DNA of 35,493 nt from a virus. The translations under genes were made by a program, and so were the position numbers. Where the stretch lies: UHGV virus genome UHGV-0231292. The stretch is one strand, 5' to 3'. Below, piece by piece: positions 4,821 to 33,675 of the stretch (positions are counted from its first letter, which is position 1; each line of letters begins with the position of its first letter). The notes under the pieces are model-generated. The model made no database searches, was not told where the DNA came from, and saw only the letters and a program-made list of their open reading frames with translations.

Positions 4821-5210
4821 ATGATTGACGCTCATGACTTCACAAGATGGGTGCGCACACAGGACCCCCGTCTGGCTCCCGTTCTTCAGGGATTATTTGA
4901 TCTCTACATCCGTGGTCGTGACAACAGAGCACGCACCACAAAACCGGAGAATGCAGACACCCTTTATTTCACAGTAGACGACTGCTACCGCGTGGACTTC
5001 ACACCACACGGGCTGGCGTTGCACTGCCTGACACCACACGGCGAATCACTGCTGGCGTATTACGACTCCCCGGCCTCCATATTTGCGGCAATGCTGGCGC
5101 ATCGCACTGCTGGCGGGTGTGCCTCGCTGAGTGAATACTCCGCTGAATTTAACCGCCTTTCCGCCCTCTTCTCACAGGAGTGGCAGCGCGTGACGGGATA
5201 CCAGCCATGA
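4821..5210 (+). CDS. Hypothetical early protein immediately upstream of A
   Basis: 129 aa ORF; its stop overlaps the A start (ATGA). Confidence 0.45.
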   Translation: MIDAHDFTRWVRTQDPRLAPVLQGLFDLYIRGRDNRARTTKPENADTLYFTVDDCYRVDFTPHGLALHCLTPHGESLLAYYDSPASIFAAMLAHRTAGGCASLSEYSAEFNRLSALFSQEWQRVTGYQP

Positions 5211-8047
5211 GTGCGTTTGCATGGAGCTGGAATGAACCACGGCCAGCCATTGATCCGGCCAGATTTACGGAGCGCAGGCAGGAAACTGAAACCGACCTGC
5301 AACGCGCCATCCGTTACTACCTTGAGGCAAACAAAAGGGCACAGGAAGAACAGGAAGCGAAGGAAGAAGCCTTTTTCGCACAATCCACCGTGGGTAAAAA
5401 ACTCATGGCATCCCTTGAGGAAGCCGGACAGCGTGAAAAGCTGGCACAAAGCATCATCAGCAAGCGTCAGGCAACAGAACAAGACCCGGTGGCCCGTGCT
5501 TTTGCCACACTGAAGGTGCTTCCCGTTTATCTGCGTGAACCTCTGAGCCGCCACCTCTCTTTTCTGCGCAAGAAGCAGGAAGCCGATCGTCAGAAAGGCA
5601 AAAAGAGCTGGCAGGCTGAACGCTACGCGCGCGGAACCCTGCGCAAAATATTCGAACGTCTGGACCGCACCGACAGCCGCTGGCTGACACCGGGCTATCG
5701 CTCCCTTGCCGGACGCGAACGCCTGGACGATTTGCTTTACCTGCCGCAGCTCAACAAACACCAGATACAGACGCTGGCCACCATGACGGCGGCGATGTTC
5801 AGTGGCACTTTTGAAAAACTCTGCGATGGCTTTGGCGCGACCGATGGCGAGCTGACCATGGATGTAACGCTGAAGGCGTATCAGATGCTGGCCCGCATGG
5901 CGTTACACCTGCACGCTATGCCTCCACATTATGACGCTCTGACAACAGACAAAGACCGGAGGAATGAACCGGACACGGAGCTGCTGCCGGGCGCAATCCT
6001 TCGCCTGACCTGTGCGGAATGGTGGAAACGCAAACTGTGGCTGTTACGTTGCGAGTGGAGAGAAGAACAACTCCGCGCCGCCTGTCTGGTTTCCAGAAAA
6101 ACATCACCCTATCTGAGCCAGGACGCGTTAAGCGAGTTTCGCGCACAGCGCGAGAAAACACGCGATTTCCTGAAAAGTTTCATGCTGGAAAACGAAGACG
6201 GGTTCACGATTGATCTCGAGACAGTGTATTACGCGGGAGTAAGTAACCCGATTCACCGTAAGGCAGAAATGATGGCCACCATGAAGGGGCTGGAACTTCT
6301 GGCCGAAGCCCGTGGCGACAGAGCGGTGTTTCTGACTGTCACCTGCCCGTCAAAATACCACGCCACAACAGAGAACGGTCATCCGAATCCCAAATGGAAC
6401 GGGGCCACCATGCGCGACTCCAGCGATTACCTGGTTAACACGTTTTTTGCGGCGGTCCGCAAGAAACTGAACCGCGACGGCCTGCGCTGGTATGGCATCC
6501 GCACGGTGGAGCCTCACCATGACGGCACCGTGCACTGGCATATGATGGTCTTTGCTCATCCGGAAGAAATCGACACCATTGTGTCCCACACCCGCGATAT
6601 TGCCATTCAGGAAGACCGCCACGAGCTGGGCAATGATATTACTCCGCGCTTTAAGGTGGAGTATGTCGACGGCTCAAAAGGCACGCCAACCAGCTACATC
6701 GCCACCTACATCGGAAAGAACCTGGACAGCCGCGCCGTGGATGGCATCGACCCGAAAACGGGCAAGCCACGCGTTGACCACGAAACCGGAAAATCAATGG
6801 CCGAGAGCGTGGAACGCGCCATCGGCTGGGCACGCCTTCACCGGGTCCGCCAGTTCCAGTTCTTTGGCATCCCCTCCCGTCAGGTATGGCGTGAACTCCG
6901 CCGCCTTGCCAGCCAGATGGCACGCAACCCGGAAGGCCCACAACGGCTGAAGGATGATGCAATGGATGCGGTACTCGCTGCCGCTGATGCCGGGTGTTTT
7001 GCCACCTACATTGAGAAACAGGGCGGCGTACTTGTTCCACGCAAAGACTACCTGATTCGCACCGCCTACGACCTCGCAGATGAGCTGAACGATTACGGCG
7101 AACAGAGCGTACAGATTTACGGGATCTGGTCACCACTCATCGGGGAATCCTCCCGTGTGTGCACGCACCCGGATAACTGGAAGCTAGTAAGACGTAAACC
7201 GGAAGCGGAAGACAGCACCCGCGAAAATGGTTTTGACCTTCAGGGCGGCCCTGCCGCCCCTTGGACTCGTGGCAATAACTGTCCCCGTGTACAGGAAACG
7301 GACAACAACGGGACAGAACAGCCGGAAGAAAGGCCAGCACCGTGGCCGCAGCTTCCTGACGGCGTTGACGTGAATGAATGGATGCGCTCACTGAAACGGC
7401 ACGAACGCCGGGCGCTGATGCGTTCGCTGCGTGACAAACAGGCAAAAAACAGCAGTGATGAAATGCAGAACTGGACACAGAGCCGCAAACAGCCACGGCC
7501 TTTGCCTGATAACCACGAGTTACTCGCTAAAGAATGGCGGGAGTCTGCTGAATCTCTCGGCCTGCATATCGGTGAACAGCAGATGCAGCACCTGTTACGG
7601 GGCGGCAGTCTGTACGTTGACGGCAGCATCATTGCACCGCAGGGATTTGAAATTGTACGCAAACCAGATACCCGCCCGGACAGCCGAATCACGCAACTCT
7701 GGCAGCGCCTGAGCCGTAATCACGGCGTAAGCAGCACGGAGATCCGCCATAACCCGGTCGCCAGCTATCTGGAACAGCTGGGGGCATCAGACCCCGAAGC
7801 CGCCGCACACCTGGCATCCACACTTCAGCAGGACCAGAACACCATGAAAACCCCCGTTACCGTGCTTTCTGACATGCTGCGCGCCATCCGTGACGCAGTG
7901 CACGCACAGAGAATCAGTGAAACCACTGAACGCGCCCACCGCAAAGCAGACCTGCTGCGGGGTAGCCTGACCAGTGGAAACAAAAAACAGACAGAAACGG
8001 GACTCACAAATCCCGTAAATGAGCAAAAAACGTGCCGCGATATATGA
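5207..8047 (+). CDS. A: Rolling-circle replication initiator (P2 gpA-like HUH endonuclease)
   Basis: HUH motif VHWHMMVF and paired tyrosines SYIATYIGKN (Y-x3-Y) as in phiX174/P2 A-type initiators; start set to the ATG at 5207 rather than the upstream GTG. Confidence 0.85.
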   Translation: MSAFAWSWNEPRPAIDPARFTERRQETETDLQRAIRYYLEANKRAQEEQEAKEEAFFAQSTVGKKLMASLEEAGQREKLAQSIISKRQATEQDPVARAFATLKVLPVYLREPLSRHLSFLRKKQEADRQKGKKSWQAERYARGTLRKIFERLDRTDSRWLTPGYRSLAGRERLDDLLYLPQLNKHQIQTLATMTAAMFSGTFEKLCDGFGATDGELTMDVTLKAYQMLARMALHLHAMPPHYDALTTDKDRRNEPDTELLPGAILRLTCAEWWKRKLWLLRCEWREEQLRAACLVSRKTSPYLSQDALSEFRAQREKTRDFLKSFMLENEDGFTIDLETVYYAGVSNPIHRKAEMMATMKGLELLAEARGDRAVFLTVTCPSKYHATTENGHPNPKWNGATMRDSSDYLVNTFFAAVRKKLNRDGLRWYGIRTVEPHHDGTVHWHMMVFAHPEEIDTIVSHTRDIAIQEDRHELGNDITPRFKVEYVDGSKGTPTSYIATYIGKNLDSRAVDGIDPKTGKPRVDHETGKSMAESVERAIGWARLHRVRQFQFFGIPSRQVWRELRRLASQMARNPEGPQRLKDDAMDAVLAAADAGCFATYIEKQGGVLVPRKDYLIRTAYDLADELNDYGEQSVQIYGIWSPLIGESSRVCTHPDNWKLVRRKPEAEDSTRENGFDLQGGPAAPWTRGNNCPRVQETDNNGTEQPEERPAPWPQLPDGVDVNEWMRSLKRHERRALMRSLRDKQAKNSSDEMQNWTQSRKQPRPLPDNHELLAKEWRESAESLGLHIGEQQMQHLLRGGSLYVDGSIIAPQGFEIVRKPDTRPDSRITQLWQRLSRNHGVSSTEIRHNPVASYLEQLGASDPEAAAHLASTLQQDQNTMKTPVTVLSDMLRAIRDAVHAQRISETTERAHRKADLLRGSLTSGNKKQTETGLTNPVNEQKTCRDI

Positions 8048-8072
8048 AGCGCGCACAAAACAGGCAAAAGCG

Positions 8073-8086
8073 GGATTTAAAAATCC
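8073..8086. promoter_or_regulatory. Palindrome GGATTT-AA-AAATCC upstream of the parM-like gene (candidate operator/centromere)
   Basis: Inverted repeat read directly in the 76-bp A to parM-like spacer. Confidence 0.3.
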
Positions 8087-8123
8087 TGTAACCGATTAAT
8101 TAATCAACACAAGGAAAAGCGAC

Positions 8124-9083
8124 ATGAAAATTTGTATCGACGACGGCTCCACCAACATCAAGCTGGCATGGACTGAGAACGGCGAACGCCGCAACGCCAT
8201 CAGCCCGAACAGCTTCAAGTCGGAATGGTCTGCGCCGTTCGGTGGCACGCAGCCCGCGAACTACATGCTTGATGGCGTGCGCTATGGTTTTGATCCGGTC
8301 AGCGATCGCTTTGTCCAGACGACCGACACGCAATACCAGTACAGCGATGTGAATATAATTGCCATTCATCACGCGCTGGTCAAATCAGGCATCACACCAC
8401 AGGAAGTGGATGTGGTTGTCACCCTGCCACTGAGCGAGTATTTCGATACAAACGCACAGCCGGACATGGCCAACATCAACCGCAAAAAAGCGAACGTCAT
8501 GCGCCCGGTGGAGTACCAGAACGGCGAAGCATTCACTATCCGTAACGTACGGGTTATGCCTGAATCCATTCCGGCTGGCTTTAAGGCACTGGCTGACATG
8601 AGTCCGTTTGAATCCCTGCTGATTGTGGATTTGGGCGGAACCACTCTGGATGTGGCAAAGGTTCAGGGGCAACTGGCAGGTATCAGCCAGGTGTTTTGCG
8701 ATCCACACGTGGGCGTTTCTCTGATGGCCGATGCCGTACTGTCGGTGATGGCCACTAACGGTATGCGCACCAGTCACCACATCGCCAATACCATTATCGA
8801 ACATCGCCATGATGAAGCCTGGCTGCGCCAGCACATCCACAATGACGCGCATTACGCCAGCCTGATGGCGGTTATTCGTGAAAAGGAAGAAACACTGAAA
8901 CAACGCGTGATCCGCGCGCTGGCGGGTTTTTCGGGTTACGGGCGGGTGATGGTTGTCGGTGGAGGGGCGGAGATTGTGGCACCCGCTATCCGCGAAGCCT
9001 GCGGAGTTAATGCGACTTTCATCGCGGACGGGGTGCCACAGTTTGCTCTGGTTAATGGGCTGTACGCAATGGACAAGGAGTAA
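8124..9083 (+). CDS. parM: Actin-like segregation ATPase (ParM/StbA family)
   Basis: 319 aa; hallmark motifs IDDGSTNIKL, YSDVN, VMPESIPAG, DLGGTTLD, VVGGGAE, LVNGLY match ParM/StbA as recalled. Confidence 0.75.
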   Translation: MKICIDDGSTNIKLAWTENGERRNAISPNSFKSEWSAPFGGTQPANYMLDGVRYGFDPVSDRFVQTTDTQYQYSDVNIIAIHHALVKSGITPQEVDVVVTLPLSEYFDTNAQPDMANINRKKANVMRPVEYQNGEAFTIRNVRVMPESIPAGFKALADMSPFESLLIVDLGGTTLDVAKVQGQLAGISQVFCDPHVGVSLMADAVLSVMATNGMRTSHHIANTIIEHRHDEAWLRQHIHNDAHYASLMAVIREKEETLKQRVIRALAGFSGYGRVMVVGGGAEIVAPAIREACGVNATFIADGVPQFALVNGLYAMDKE

Positions 9084-9087
9084 ACCA

Positions 9088-9399
9088 ATGACGACTCCAA
9101 CCAGACGGATAAGTTTCTATCTGAAGCCCACCGCCGTCAAGAACGAAGGAGAAGCATGCGCCTGGCTGGACAGCCTTACACCAGAAGCCCGCAAAAGCGG
9201 CCAACGCGTGGCTTTTCTGGCCGGGCTGGCACTTCTGAAAATGAATCCGGCAGAGGCTTATCGACTGGCTGCATGGGCTGGTGATGAAGCGTTATCAGTG
9301 ACACAAACCAGGACAGAACGCCCCGCATCACAGCCAGTATCAACCGCACAGATAACCAGTCAGATGGCCGGAAATATCCGGGCGTTATTTCCTGAATAA
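9088..9399 (+). CDS. parR: ParR/StbB-like DNA-binding adaptor
   Basis: 104 aa from the in-frame ATG directly after the parM-like stop; RRISFYLKP...LDSLTPEARKSGQRVAFLAGLALLKMNP...LFPE parallels plasmid R1 ParR as recalled. Confidence 0.55.
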   Translation: MTTPTRRISFYLKPTAVKNEGEACAWLDSLTPEARKSGQRVAFLAGLALLKMNPAEAYRLAAWAGDEALSVTQTRTERPASQPVSTAQITSQMAGNIRALFPE

Positions 9400-9462
9400 C
9401 ACAACATCAGGGCGAGTTCGCCCTGCTCTCCACCTCAGAACATAAACAAGGAGAACGACTTA

Positions 9463-10053
9463 ATGAGCGAAATCAACTATCAGGCATTACGTGAACGTTA
9501 TTCACCTGTGCCAGTACCGAAATGCCCTATTTGCGGCGAGGAAATGTCAATTCAGCGAATATCTGGAGCACAGGTTGTTTATGCCTGCTCCGGTTATGGT
9601 GATGATGGAGATTTCAAAATTGGCCGAACTCTTGCCGACGAACATTATGAAAAATCACGCGTAACAGTGTTGGATGTCGGGGATCCTGAAGTATTGGCGC
9701 TACTTGATTGGCTGGAAACCAAAGACAACCGAATCGCTGAACTGGAAAAAATCGCCACTGACTATGCACTTAAATTCCAGAAAGCACAGGACGCATTAAA
9801 GTATGCCGCTTTGCTGCATAGCAGGACGGCGCAACAAACAAATAATTTTGCAGTATCGCTTCCGGACATAAGCGAATATTTCATTAATGACGTATTTCAG
9901 CCCTTGCGATACGAGCGGGATGTTGAAAGAGCCATCATAAAGGCTGGCGGAAAAGCATTGTGGCAGGAGAAACACGAGGACAGAACGCATCAGTCCTGCG
10001 ATGTAAATCGTGGATGGTTTAGCCCACTGACGACAGATAAAAATAACACCTGA
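9463..10053 (+). CDS. Hypothetical protein with N-terminal Cys-rich (zinc-ribbon-like) segment and central helical region
   Basis: 196 aa; CPICGEE...YACSGYGDDGD then coiled-coil-like LALLDWLETKDNRIAELEKIATDYALKFQKAQDAL; strong RBS AAGGAGAA. Confidence 0.5.
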   Translation: MSEINYQALRERYSPVPVPKCPICGEEMSIQRISGAQVVYACSGYGDDGDFKIGRTLADEHYEKSRVTVLDVGDPEVLALLDWLETKDNRIAELEKIATDYALKFQKAQDALKYAALLHSRTAQQTNNFAVSLPDISEYFINDVFQPLRYERDVERAIIKAGGKALWQEKHEDRTHQSCDVNRGWFSPLTTDKNNT

Positions 10054-10181: not shown

Positions 10182-10492
10182 GCGTGCACAAAAAAACGCG
10201 CTTTTTCTGCGCGCAGGTGACGGGGGAACAGCCCGCGTTTCAGGGGGTAAATAGCACTCCCTGAACGATGTCGCAGAGATACAACAGAATGGCTGTATTT
10301 CTCACGCTGAGCGTGAAAAAGACGTGAGGGCTTTTGATTTGATGGGGTGGCAGATAAGGCCGTCAAAATCGCACTGAGGCGGCGAAAACATGCAGTCAGC
10401 GCAGTGGGATTGCGTAAGAGTCTGACCGTCGATGATGGCAATAAGCAGGAAAGCGTCGTGAAATTATCTGATTGATACAGGAGCTGGAGAGT

Positions 10493-10517
10493 CGGGGCAT
10501 AAATTTTTTATGCCCCG
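10493..10517 (-). terminator. Stem-loop just downstream of Q on the minus strand (possible operon terminator)
   Basis: CGGGGCAT-loop(AAATTTTTT)-ATGCCCCG inverted repeat; no clear U-run, so weak. Confidence 0.3.
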
Positions 10518-10543: not shown

Positions 10544-11590
10544 TCAGGATGTGGGCTGGGTGTCTAACAGTGCGTAAGGGTTAAAGCGGATCACCTCTTC
10601 GCCAAGCCAGTCATTGATGTGCTTCATGGCCTCCATGACAGGCATCAGCTCGTTAATTGCGTAAACCCGCGCGGCCTTCTCCACATCACCAAACGCACTT
10701 TTTTCGCCCGGCATCGCCCCCATCAGTTGCGGCGGAACGCGGTGCGCAGCCAGCACATCATCACGGGATGCCGCCTTAACATTCATGAACTCATCTTTTG
10801 CGGTGATCTGCTGGAACGGCAAAATTTGCACCCCCTCTTTGCCCCCGTTGGGCGCATGAATGAGCACGTTTTTAAATGCACCACCACCACGCGCACCCTG
10901 TAACGTTTCTTTCAGGGAGTCCATGCTTTCGCGGTTTACCTGCGCTGCACCGATGTAGATGATGCACCCGGCGTGGGATCCGTTGTCGTAGTACAGTTTT
11001 CTGAACATGTCCGCCGAATGAGAAAGGCTGGCCGAGAGTAATGCGCCAAGATATTCCGGCATGCCGTAGATTTCCTGGTTAATATCCGGATTCATCAGGT
11101 GGCACACTTTGCCAGGGCGAAACTGGAACGCGTCCTTGCCATCCTGCACATACCACCATGATTCAAGATCGCTTCCGCGTCGCATGTATTTCGCCAGGGC
11201 GTGCCGTAATTTAAGCGGTTCGCCGAGCATATTGCTACGAAGCTCAAGGAATGCGTTACCGAACACAAACCAGTCCAGCGCCAGCGCCGAGAAATCCTGC
11301 CGGGAAAACAGCGGGTGCGGGATGTAGCAACCGAGTAATACATTGCGCTTAAAGTAAAGCGCAGACTGATGCCAGGACGTTTGCCGGGCAGCTCTTGCCA
11401 GACCGTACCAGTCCACCGGGGTTTCATACCACCGCCCGTTATCAGCACAGTACATATTATCCAGCAGGTCATGCCCGGTCAGGCGATAAGGACCATCAAA
11501 TGTGAATGCACTGAGCGATGATTCTTTCCTGAGCGCATCAGCGAGATCAATGCGTGAACTCATGCGCACTTTTTTATTTTTTCTGCTCAT
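10544..11590 (-). CDS. Q: Portal protein (P2 gpQ-like)
   Basis: 348 aa; size, position and N-terminal pattern (basic N-terminus then FTFDGP...W) match P2 Q; cotranscribed with P. Confidence 0.9.
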   Translation of the reverse strand: MSRKNKKVRMSSRIDLADALRKESSLSAFTFDGPYRLTGHDLLDNMYCADNGRWYETPVDWYGLARAARQTSWHQSALYFKRNVLLGCYIPHPLFSRQDFSALALDWFVFGNAFLELRSNMLGEPLKLRHALAKYMRRGSDLESWWYVQDGKDAFQFRPGKVCHLMNPDINQEIYGMPEYLGALLSASLSHSADMFRKLYYDNGSHAGCIIYIGAAQVNRESMDSLKETLQGARGGGAFKNVLIHAPNGGKEGVQILPFQQITAKDEFMNVKAASRDDVLAAHRVPPQLMGAMPGEKSAFGDVEKAARVYAINELMPVMEAMKHINDWLGEEVIRFNPYALLDTQPTS

Positions 11591-13341
11591 CAGAACTCCA
11601 TAACCGTGAAACGCTCGTTTTCTCCTTCGCCGCCAATCGGTTCGTTAATGACAGCAAGCATGGTTGCCCACGCAAGGTCGCCGTGGCTGATCCCCCTCGC
11701 TCGGTCCGTTTCGTAAGTGATAAAGCCGCCCGGTGTTTTCACCTTACGCACGGCGTTAAAGGCCGCGACCAGCTCGCGTTCGGCGCGATCGTATTCCCAC
11801 CGCCCGGCACGCATTATTTGCAGCATTTTCAGTACCAGCGACCGTTTTGATGACAGCGTGAAGGTGTACGGAATAGCAGCAGGGAAAAACCGTTTCACTA
11901 TCTGATAAACAGCCTCCCCGTTCCCGCCCGTCACATCAATGCCGATGTGTTCCACGTTATAGCGACACGTGAACTCTTCAATGACTCTGGCCTGTTCTTC
12001 AAACTCCAGCCCCTGAACGCGTCGCGTCTCCACCGTTCGAAAACGGCCACCAGGAACAGCCGGAGGAACCACCACGGACACAGCACCGCTGTCGCCGTTG
12101 CCACTGCTGCCGTTTGCGTCATACCCAATCCATACCGGACGATTCCCCATCGGGCGGGGAGCAAAAGGTTTCCAGTCTTTCCAGTCGTCGTATCCGTCAA
12201 CACCGCAGCCAATCAGGATATTCAGGTTAAATGCCGATTCCCCTTCGCGGACAAACTCACACATATAGAGATTGAGGAACTCGTCTTCGGTGTTTTCATC
12301 ACGAATTTCGTCGATATCGGTGTGTTTCCAGCCGTGATTAACCACATCTTCCAGCGTGACAATTTGCCGCCAAGTCCGGTCAGGGCAGATAAGCCCGTTA
12401 TGCAGCGTTTTCCAGTCCACAGAAAAACGCTGGCGTTTATGCGAAGCCTTTTTCTCGTTCCAGCGGTCGCCGTTCCAGTAGGCGTACGCCTCGTGCGTTT
12501 CGGTGGATGGCGTGGAGAAGTAGGTGCGCCGCAGTCCGCTGAGGGTTGCCATAGCGCCAGCCACCTTGCGCAGTTCAGCAAAGCGACTGACCCAGAAAAA
12601 TTCATCAAAATAAAAATTGCCCGTATAGGACTGTGCCGACGCAGCAGAAGTGCCGAGAAAATGCAGCTCTGCGCCGTTGGAGAGGATGATTTTATCGCCC
12701 CCTTTCAGCTCCACATCAACTTCAGCCGCGACCTTCTGAATAATGCTTTTAAACTGGAACGCCTGACGACGCGACGCAGACAAAAAAATCTGGTTACGCT
12801 GGTAAGGTTGCGCCACATCGTCACGCAGCGCCATCAGCAGAGCTTCCTGTGCAAAATACCAGGTCGCCCCAATCTGTCGGGATTTCAGGATCATCCTGTT
12901 ACGTATCCCGGCTTCCCTGCAAAGTGTCAGGGAGTCAAACCAGCCCCGCTGATGCCACTCCAGCCTGCTGATGATTTTTTCCCGCAGTGCGGCAATCTGT
13001 TCCGGCGTGAAATGATTTTTAAGTTTTTTCGCCCGGCCTTTCTTTCCTGCGGCCATCACATCCGGCTGGCCATCATGCAGCTTTTTAAGCTGCCGGGTCA
13101 GCAGGTCTATTTCCTTAAAGTCACCGCCTGTTTTATTCTGTTTTTCAGTAAGCTGGATGAGGCGCGCATCGATGGACTGCGTGACACGCTGCACGGGGGG
13201 CGTTTCATCCCACTGGTCGCGTTTTTTCCACGCATAAATCGTGTTCGGGTTTATTCCCATCAGACGTGATATTTCTGCGGGCGGATAACCCTGCCAGTAA
13301 AGTTGCCGCGCACGCTGGCGCACAAAAGCGTCCTGAATCAT
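11590..13341 (-). CDS. P: Terminase large subunit / ATPase (P2 gpP-like)
   Basis: 583 aa; N-terminus MIQDAFVRQRARQLYWQGYPPAEISRLMGINPNTIYAWKKRDQWDE characteristic of P2 P. Confidence 0.9.
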   Translation of the reverse strand: MIQDAFVRQRARQLYWQGYPPAEISRLMGINPNTIYAWKKRDQWDETPPVQRVTQSIDARLIQLTEKQNKTGGDFKEIDLLTRQLKKLHDGQPDVMAAGKKGRAKKLKNHFTPEQIAALREKIISRLEWHQRGWFDSLTLCREAGIRNRMILKSRQIGATWYFAQEALLMALRDDVAQPYQRNQIFLSASRRQAFQFKSIIQKVAAEVDVELKGGDKIILSNGAELHFLGTSAASAQSYTGNFYFDEFFWVSRFAELRKVAGAMATLSGLRRTYFSTPSTETHEAYAYWNGDRWNEKKASHKRQRFSVDWKTLHNGLICPDRTWRQIVTLEDVVNHGWKHTDIDEIRDENTEDEFLNLYMCEFVREGESAFNLNILIGCGVDGYDDWKDWKPFAPRPMGNRPVWIGYDANGSSGNGDSGAVSVVVPPAVPGGRFRTVETRRVQGLEFEEQARVIEEFTCRYNVEHIGIDVTGGNGEAVYQIVKRFFPAAIPYTFTLSSKRSLVLKMLQIMRAGRWEYDRAERELVAAFNAVRKVKTPGGFITYETDRARGISHGDLAWATMLAVINEPIGGEGENERFTVMEF

Positions 13342-32535: not shown

Positions 32536-33675
32536 GTGGGAAACAATAAAGTGAAATTAGGAAGAAATGATAAGTGCTGGTGTAATTCAGGACTTAAGTA
32601 TAAAAAGTGCCATCTTGGTCGAGATCGTGAAACTCCGGTATCCAAAGCCGAGGCACTGAAATTTTCAAAGTCTCTCTCGCAGAGAAAGGCATGTTATGCG
32701 CCAGCATCCATGCACGAAGATTGTGATAAACGCATCGTTCAGGCGCATACGATATCTAAGAGCAGTAGCCTTAAGGCGATCGCCGACTCCAGCAATCACG
32801 TCATGGGGGTGATAATGAACTTAGCAAGCCTGATGAGAAACAACGGAAAATGGCTTCCCGAGAAGATCGGTATCAATCAGGCATCCACTTTTACAGGATT
32901 TTGTGCAGTTCATGACAGAATCTTATTTTCATGCCTAGAGAACGAAAAATTTACAGGCACGGACGAGCAGTGCTTTGCCTTAATGTTTCGTTCATTGTCT
33001 AAAGAAATTTATGCCAAAGAAGGGGGAGTGCTATCTTCTGATTTTGCTAAAAATGCCGATAAAGGAAAGCTACAAGTTGAACAGTATTATATTCAGAAAT
33101 TAATCGACCAGCACCAAAGTGGCTTAAATGCAGCAATAATTGAATTAAATAATCTTAAAACTAGCCTCGACCGCATCCTACTTAGCAGGCAATTTTCAGA
33201 AATTGAAAGTGTTATCTTCACTTTTGCAGAGCCTTTACCAATTGTAGTTTCGTCAATTCTTTCACCGGAGAGGGATTTCGATGGGACCAAAATTCAGGAT
33301 TTGAGCGATCTTACAGTGTCGGCGGAACAAGTATGTTTCAATGCTTTTTCCTGCGGAGGTAAGGGATATGTAGTGTTCAGTTGGCTGAGAACTTCAACAA
33401 TTATCAGACGTTTTATACGGACACTAATTAAGATCCCAGCTAACAGGATGTTCAATACCCTTCTGTATTTTTTCTTCACAAAGGCCGAAAATACATATTC
33501 ATCCCCTGAGTGGTGGGACAGGCTCAGTGATAAACAGCGAGAGAATATCGGCAACATGATTATGTCAGGGGTTGAATTTTTTGGCAGACCTACATCACAG
33601 GTTGATCATTCCGTTGATTATAACGCCGCTGCACTTGAAGAGATAACATGCAGCAACAACGAAATTTGCAGCTGA
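32536..33675 (+). CDS. SEC-C metal-binding-motif protein of unknown function in an AT-rich island
   Basis: 379 aa; N-terminal CWCNSGLKYKKCH matches the SecA/YecA SEC-C zinc motif (C-x-C-x8-C-H); non-ATG start (GTG at 32536 or 32551); AT-rich versus flanking phage genes. Confidence 0.55.
   Translation: MGNNKVKLGRNDKCWCNSGLKYKKCHLGRDRETPVSKAEALKFSKSLSQRKACYAPASMHEDCDKRIVQAHTISKSSSLKAIADSSNHVMGVIMNLASLMRNNGKWLPEKIGINQASTFTGFCAVHDRILFSCLENEKFTGTDEQCFALMFRSLSKEIYAKEGGVLSSDFAKNADKGKLQVEQYYIQKLIDQHQSGLNAAIIELNNLKTSLDRILLSRQFSEIESVIFTFAEPLPIVVSSILSPERDFDGTKIQDLSDLTVSAEQVCFNAFSCGGKGYVVFSWLRTSTIIRRFIRTLIKIPANRMFNTLLYFFFTKAENTYSSPEWWDRLSDKQRENIGNMIMSGVEFFGRPTSQVDHSVDYNAAALEEITCSNNEICS

Follow-up and report, generated by a model that had tools for sequence, protein, structure and literature searches.

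The viral genome UHGV-0231292, a stretch of 35,493 nucleotides that was analyzed at its full length (hereafter the window, numbered from its first nucleotide), represents a P88-like (Xuanwuvirus) prophage of the P2 family and carries, directly behind its replication gene A, a two-gene cassette; its assignment to the R1 class of type II ParM/ParR partition systems is fully supported by profile searches. The ~150 bp at 7977-8123, spanning the end of gene A and the spacer before parM, constitute a candidate ParR-binding centromere of two blocks. Taking sequence, conservation and distribution together, we see about an even chance that the resulting parMRC system serves the transient circular genome of the phage and not a permanent plasmid prophage. 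The features on which this proposal rests are listed below.

5180-8047, plus strand: replication gene A (Pfam Phage_GPA, 9e-130), with its TGA stop codon at 8045-8047.
7977-8033, plus strand: candidate centromere block 1, within the last codons of gene A.
8054-8123, plus strand: candidate centromere/operator block 2, comprising the A-rich arm, a palindrome, the conserved GATTAATTAATCAAC stretch and the parM ribosome-binding site.
8124-9083, plus strand: parM, encoding an actin-like segregation ATPase of the R1 class (319 amino acids).
9088-9399, plus strand: parR, encoding the adaptor protein (103 amino acids), separated from parM by 4 bp.

The gene order and coordinates behind gene A, including the 4-bp gap, had been recorded exactly in the initial annotation of this DNA, and its reading of the first gene as a ParM/StbA-family ATPase withstood profile searches, which point neither to a sugar kinase nor to an Hsp70. 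The protein matches the Pfam domains StbA_N (3.7e-82) and ParM C-terminal (1.3e-68), both far over the curated cut-offs, and aligns end-to-end with the R1 ParM structures (PDB 1MWK; 1.2e-92, residues 2-316). The phosphate- and adenosine-binding motifs DDGSTNIK, DLGGTTLD and GGGAE are retained, and identity to R1/R100-type ParM amounts to ~46-52% over the full length. The second open reading frame (ORF), likewise described beforehand as ParR-like, was recognized by PF10784 (Plasmid_stab_B, 3.1e-23 with a cut-off of 25 bits), by PHROG 2515 ('partition protein', 1.7e-57) and, weakly, through a profile of 17 ParR variants whose top match among solved structures was the pB171 ParR 2JD3 (E 0.01, residues 8-73). 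A single-sequence search of solved structures with ParR returned nothing at E up to 10. The AlphaFold2 model of the ParR monomer, computed from the 17-sequence alignment, was poor (predicted local distance difference test score, pLDDT, of 55), as is to be expected for an obligate dimer, and contained a predicted helix at residues 86-100. In NCBIfam, ParM obtained sub-threshold matches only and ParR none, and PADLOC gave no defence-model match to either protein at E up to 1. RefSeq labels the two products 'plasmid segregation protein ParM' and 'plasmid partitioning/stability family protein', and both genes are annotated in phage P88 too. A good ribosome-binding site is found before parM as well as before parR, where AAGGAG lies 8 nt upstream of the ATG.

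Comparison of the 17 ParR variants, which are 52-97% identical overall, predicts an N-terminal DNA-binding part of the ribbon-helix-helix type, then a linker that varies and, at the C-terminus, a tail that is conserved. Conservation extends over the first 65 residues, among them an invariant RRISFYLKP, and the last eight, NIRALFPE, are nearly invariant, with residues 68-92 of the linker being hypervariable. The tail resembles NIKNLFPDDE, which is found in a plasmid ParR; the ParM that goes with it ranks among the plasmid proteins nearest to that of the phage. Conserved ends joined by a free linker are the shape expected of an adaptor with one DNA-binding and one ParM-binding end. It is to be noted that ParR falls into at least two allele classes (at least 80% as against ~52-57% identity), each found beside an almost identical parM, and that DNA similarity to several phages ends around codon 18 of parR (breakpoint near 9142), a pattern that suggests recombination within the gene.

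The putative centromere is organized around a 38-nt direct repeat (7981-8018 and 8054-8091, 79% identity), each copy of which consists of a shared A-rich arm followed by a palindrome of the form GGGAYT-N4-AATCCY. The palindrome of block 1, GGGACT-CACA-AATCCC, occupies 7999-8014 and is accompanied by an A-tract, and that of block 2, GGGATT-TAAA-AATCCT, occupies 8072-8087; the shorter palindrome GGATTT-AA-AAATCC pointed out in the spacer by the initial annotation lies at 8073-8086 as described, as does TTAATTAA at 8096-8103. Within the 35 kb the composite 20-mer is restricted to these two sites, and 100 shuffled sequences yielded no case of two matches. When the window is compared to a Hafnia prophage, the blocks are 79% and unit 2 is 87% identical, as against 49% for the adjacent upstream coding DNA of gene A and 30% for the 20 bp between the blocks. 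The stop codon of the Hafnia gene A falls at the centre of the first palindrome, which implies that this unit is retained whether it is translated or not. In 11 of 11 parMR loci (10 fetched ones in addition to the window) the distance from one palindrome to the other is exactly 73 bp, corresponding to ~seven helical turns; no further copies of the palindrome occur in these 11 loci, and it is absent from two plasmid parMRC loci. The A-tract phasing of the region (10-11.5 bp) is the strongest of all 149-bp segments in the 35 kb, at a level reached by 23 of 1000 shuffles, and phasing is likewise seen in R1 parC, the positive control (0 of 1000 shuffles). A search for iterons in the 3' end of gene A or downstream of parR, which had been suggested beforehand, was thus successful on one side only: one of the two conserved repeat units is located in the end of gene A, and the DNA from parR to the portal gene holds only short two-copy matches of a chance-like kind.

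The surroundings of the cassette in the window comprise the following features.

9408-9425, plus strand: hairpin CAGGGCGA-GT-TCGCCCTG, 3' of parR (-13 kcal/mol, z -3.2).
9463-10053: Ead/Ea22-family gene, downstream of the parMR cassette.
10544-11590, minus strand: portal gene.
11590-13341, minus strand: terminase gene.
226-1227: tyrosine integrase gene (PF00589).

The order gene A, parM, 4 bp, parR, variable genes and portal was observed in all seven loci fetched through the ParR variants, that of Hafnia included, each being read as far as it extends and some having ogr before the portal gene. The variable slot is situated after parR and is filled by Ead/Ea22, by a helix-turn-helix (HTH)-M78 peptidase pair, by methyltransferases or by unknown ORFs. 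The P88-type 3' half of gene A (at least 80% coverage) was detected in 1355 genomes and the cassette in 1278. This fixed place beside gene A and the link to one type of A indicate that the cassette behaves as part of the phage backbone and not as swappable hotspot cargo; its placement in the position of the P2 tin/old locus therefore stands as far as the site directly after A is concerned, and fails as regards an exchangeable content. Over the cassette region, the window is 99.6% identical to Xuanwuvirus P884B11 and ~97% identical to P88, PhiR44_2 and Citrobacter phage phiSM. A natural deletion was found in the dog-derived E. coli NZ_CP115358.1 (locus L014, 3486-3640), whose P88-like prophage lacks the equivalent of window positions ~8053-9446. 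Block 2, parM, parR and the following hairpin are removed, block 1 persists, and a frameshifted ead follows gene A almost without an interval. The hairpin at 9408-9425, which lies inside the segment absent from this parMR-less variant, has no U-run on the plus strand and is hence not a canonical terminator; it likely represents the 3' boundary of the cassette.

Two side observations concern the genes on either side. The product of gene A is 955 amino acids long and extends ~440 residues beyond the Phage_GPA domain, which ends at about residue 518; the 3' half of the gene is restricted to the parMR-carrying lineage, the A genes of other E. coli matching the first ~590 bases only of the query 6700-8047. 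Part of the ead gene is 82-86% identical in DNA sequence to genes on many E. coli plasmids of ~100-150 kb.

Purifying selection is tighter on parM than on gene A, the ratio of non-synonymous to synonymous divergence (dN/dS) being 0.03-0.11 for the former and 0.11-0.30 for the latter; relative to the Hafnia prophage, parM shows a dS of 0.63 with a dN of 0.026. Among P88-like phage records the identity of ParM is 95.6-100%, or 98-100% if the fragmented copy of phage 503458 is left aside, and both ORFs are annotated as intact in 39 of 39 sampled genomes whose match covers the two genes. A scan of genome contigs with ParM yielded three near-identical loci only (E. albertii, Salmonella and 'Vagococcus'), the diversity described here coming from ParR homologues. 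The 226-kb contig labelled Vagococcus sp. (NZ_JBQPOM010000071.1) carries the cassette at 98% protein identity, and its assembly is probably contaminated or mislabelled.

The cassette and its upstream region were present in 1308 of 5426 complete E. coli genomes, about a quarter, with UTI89, E2348/69, an O127:H6 strain, O157:H7 and ST131 among the carriers. Some genomes hold up to three copies, and of the resulting 1456 places 1454 are chromosomal and two are on plasmids. Seven records with the cassette were retrieved from the 72,556 plasmids of PLSDB. Five, between 228 kb and 1.4 Mb in size, are large replicons with an integrated copy, and some of these replicons may be misassigned chromosome pieces. 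Another is a circle of 34,461 bp (NZ_CP148288.1, from the complete assembly of a cat-derived E. coli outside the collection used for the above counts) that consists of a whole P88-like phage including the integrase, of a type that many other strains carry in integrated form at 99.9% identity. The last, a 26.8-kb Shigella 'plasmid', was rejected as evidence of an episome, being a linear, IS1-disrupted prophage fragment. More than 5000 plasmids encode a ParM homologue, none of which is 60-95% identical to the phage ParM, the nearest reaching 52%, and a tblastn search with the phage ParR uncovered no relative on any genuine plasmid; both results speak for an old phage-associated lineage and not for a recent acquisition from plasmids. 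Among other phages, a related ParM was encountered only in the phage-plasmid D6, whose StbA is 47.5% identical. The rolling-circle initiator A is the only replication gene identified by Pfam scans of selected early ORFs, and no plasmid-type Rep appeared in the RefSeq annotation of the early region or in these scans, which did not cover every early ORF. Episomal residence of the lysogenic prophage is thus disfavoured, and with it the stable episomal state that the initial annotation had offered as one explanation of the cassette.

How the cassette may act is suggested by its place. In simple consensus scans of the interval between gene A and parM, no terminator-like or sigma-70 promoter-like site on the plus strand reached the threshold, from which we infer that the cassette is expressed with the early replication operon. 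In P2-type phages this operon is repressed in lysogens. Early-operon expression combined with chromosomal residence would point to the free genome circle that exists after infection or induction as the place of action. In the mechanism that we propose, which takes the cassette for a complete and working type II module of the replication-side backbone, the two proteins would be made only in these circumstances, while the phage genome is a free circle; ParR dimers would bind the ~150-bp region in which the last part of gene A adjoins the A-parM spacer, with its two palindrome blocks on A-tract-phased DNA; and the conserved C-terminal tail of ParR would capture ParM filaments, which would push the phage DNA circles apart. 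The transient circles would then be distributed in such a way that both daughter cells hold a copy until integration, or that replication and packaging proceed efficiently. A more far-reaching version, which we put forward tentatively and hold to be possible at best, makes ParMRC an integral part of the P88-like replication module, with a centromere built into the end of the replication gene and a small phage cytoskeleton that would space the rolling-circle monomers or deliver them to both daughters before integration. If correct, an actin-based system for genome positioning would be shown for the first time in a small temperate enterobacterial phage, and such a role in the replication module would account for the retention of the cassette under strong selection in a quarter of E. 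coli P2-family prophages despite the integrated life of its carrier.

Several points weigh against an action on transient circles through the proposed centromere. A pushing spindle needs at least two copies, which makes a benefit at the single-copy stage doubtful. A weak internal promoter may be present (TTAAAA, 16 bp, ATTAAT; 8 of 12 positions, judged by eye). The one prophage without the cassette, that of L014, implies that the latter is dispensable for prophage persistence, and the single 34.5-kb circular record that an occasional episomal state is possible. As had been stated before, no iteron array is seen: a ten-iteron array of the R1 style is not present, and two units only are clear. 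Unit 1 moreover forms, on the minus strand, an 8-bp hairpin followed by a U-rich run (-10.2 kcal/mol, z -2.7) that was flagged by the terminator scan. In the available variants neither the strand region of ParR nor the palindromes vary, which leaves no covariation to link the one to the other. Finally, we found no experiment on the cassette in the searchable literature.

The upstream repeats might not be a centromere at all, and be instead minus-strand terminators or sites for another protein, the true ParR site lying elsewhere or being very small. The hairpin of unit 1 with its U-rich run would agree with this, as would the survival of unit 1 in the parMR-less variant and the presence of two units only as compared to ten iterons in R1. 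Unit 2, however, folds poorly on the minus strand in the window (z +0.5) and was lost along with parMR. Stem changes are uncompensated (GGGACT, AATCCT), and half-sites and the 73-bp spacing are kept across a spacer of 30% identity. There is also no upstream minus-strand gene that requires termination, and the portal operon has a strong terminator-like site of its own at 10214-10196. We therefore regard this alternative as unlikely. Another assigns the cassette to a facultative plasmid prophage, which would either integrate or persist as a low-copy plasmid stabilized by ParMRC, as proposed in both Rousset 2022 and Pfeifer 2021. The partition system does belong to the class of plasmid R1, the phage is present in its entirety, integrase included, as a 34,461-bp circle in one complete assembly, a P2-like plasmid phage is known in KS14 (PMC3091744), and the phage-plasmid D6 carries the 47.5%-identical StbA. 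Such a life style is nevertheless difficult to reconcile with 1454 chromosomal locations out of 1456 in complete E. coli genomes or with the retention of the full integrase and att machinery; a plasmid replicon is required for a stable plasmid prophage, and KS14 possesses RepB and ParA, where only the rolling-circle initiator A was identified here, and the single circle could be an excised replicating form, given that the same type is integrated elsewhere at 99.9%. A facultative plasmid prophage thus appears quite improbable.

Centromere-mediated incompatibility is established for ParMRC plasmids, and the cassette could accordingly be a competition device, in which ParR and parC expressed from the prophage would exclude related phages or ParMRC plasmids, or else an unrecognized defence system of the P2 hotspot. 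Genomes with up to three copies would be in line with competition, and so would the location in the P2 tin/old region, termed a defence hotspot by Rousset 2022. On the other hand, no PADLOC match was obtained, the cassette is fixed beside gene A with no hotspot-like swapping, and ParM is nearly invariant in almost all records with a very low dN/dS, the reverse of what an arms race would be expected to leave; with no ParR relative on plasmids and plasmid ParM at no more than 52%, cross-reaction with plasmid centromeres is unlikely. We accordingly rate competition or defence as distinctly improbable, somewhat more so than a plasmid prophage. That the genes are the decaying remnant of a phage-plasmid, devoid of present function, we consider hardly credible: a parMR-less prophage does exist and the parM reading frame of phage 503458 is fragmented, but the dN/dS of parM remains at 0.03-0.11 over a dS of up to 0.63, tighter than that of gene A, the ORFs are intact in 39 of 39 sampled genomes, and the functional ends of ParR are conserved.

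The cassette is present in roughly one of four complete E. coli genomes, and its role in an integrating phage is a guess in two papers. If it does serve the transient circle, partition systems would help some integrating phages to secure lysogeny or efficient replication, to be placed next to the cases of an integrative and conjugative element (ICE) and of prophage CGP3. For annotation, the lesson is that ParM and ParR genes alone do not mark a phage-plasmid. What is new in the present work is the candidate centromere, the selection figures and the count of chromosomal as against plasmid locations.

Other parts of the element were also inspected. The tyrosine integrase of the initial annotation was confirmed at 226-1227; a tRNA-derived att site was not, ARAGORN detecting no tRNA gene in the window. 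In one strain, whose 3' end of A, parM, parR and ead are 100% identical to the window and whose prophage departs from it elsewhere by ~1.8 kb, the prophage is flanked by yecA and a tRNA-Leu/Cys/Gly cluster, and going by that strain the cluster would fall past the end of the window. At the far end of the prophage, 32536-33675 encodes a 'YecA family' protein of 379 amino acids with a SEC-C motif, host yecA being at the integrase end; in strain 2013C-4187 (L015, 12428-14445) a YecA-family gene is followed by an ogr/Delta-like gene, a Hok/Gef gene and the tRNA-Leu/Cys/Gly cluster. The region of the YecA-family gene may be the remnant of a second element. Between the integrase gene and an HTH repressor-like gene, the minus strand of 1233-2260 encodes a DUF2511 protein and a 216-amino-acid 'membrane protein', whose genes look like lysogenic-conversion cargo. 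The interval of ~490 bp from ead to the portal gene has no long ORF. This non-coding stretch contains a strong minus-strand terminator-like hairpin with a T-run (10196-10214) and a perfect 11-bp inverted repeat, CGGGGCATAAA/TTTATGCCCCG (10493-10517). By analogy with P2 it presumably also contains cos, which was not located, the P2 cos sequence having no match in the window. An Rfam search of the window returned no RNA family.

The cassette is already annotated and remarked on in print, and is ordinary in kind. Rousset 2022 noted the partition system in these phages and suggested an episomal state; P88 was caught in a phage-plasmid screen, where an episomal state was also suggested and unnamed 'plasmid-like replication genes' were mentioned (Pfeifer 2021, PMC7969092); in the phiSM paper the gene figures as one that may contribute to fitness, and the P88 paper does not discuss the cassette. 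The initial annotation had called such a system unexpected in an integrative prophage, a judgement overtaken by the RefSeq and P88 annotations, by two of these papers and by a tested precedent, the srpMRC system of SXT/R391. As in parMRC (stbAB) of R1/R100, a centromere region is followed by parM and parR, the ParR proteins belong to the same Pfam family, and the DNA upstream, like R1 parC, is rich in A and shows helical phasing. In contrast, R1/R100 are theta-replicating plasmids and the present element is an integrating rolling-circle phage, its ParR is only ~28% identical to that of R1, and a 5+5 array of 11-bp iterons is replaced by two palindrome units at a spacing of 73 bp, of which one overlaps gene A at its end; the promoter located inside the R1 repeats has no clear counterpart in those of the phage.

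The srpMRC system stabilizes the transient excised form of SXT/R391 ICEs, its expression being confined to excision (Carraro et al. 2015, PMC4489591). It too is a type II partition system on a tyrosine-integrase element that is usually chromosomal, and is strictly conserved in its family (PMC4489591). SrpM, however, is distant from R1 ParM, of which the phage ParM is a close relative; srpMR belongs to the int operon under SetCD, whereas the phage cassette follows a replication gene; and an action on transient circles, proposed for the phage from its sequence, is experimentally supported for srpMRC. In prophage CGP3 of Corynebacterium, AlpA and AlpC are induced early and support the replication of phage DNA circles, and loss of either roughly halves the quantity of circular phage DNA (Donovan et al. 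2015, PMC4446434). AlpC/AlpA/alpS resembles the present system in that an integrated prophage encodes an actin-like protein and an adaptor which binds upstream of its own operon, and differs from it in the family of the actin-like protein, in the phylum of the host and in the carrier, a large cryptic prophage as compared to active P88-like myoviruses. The phage-plasmids P1, N15, D6 and KS14, the last a Burkholderia phage with P2-like structural genes that is maintained as a plasmid by means of RepB and ParA (PMC3091744), share with the window phage the combination of a tailed temperate phage and plasmid partition genes; they have plasmid replicons and form plasmid lysogens, whereas the phage described here has an integrase and no plasmid replicon identified.

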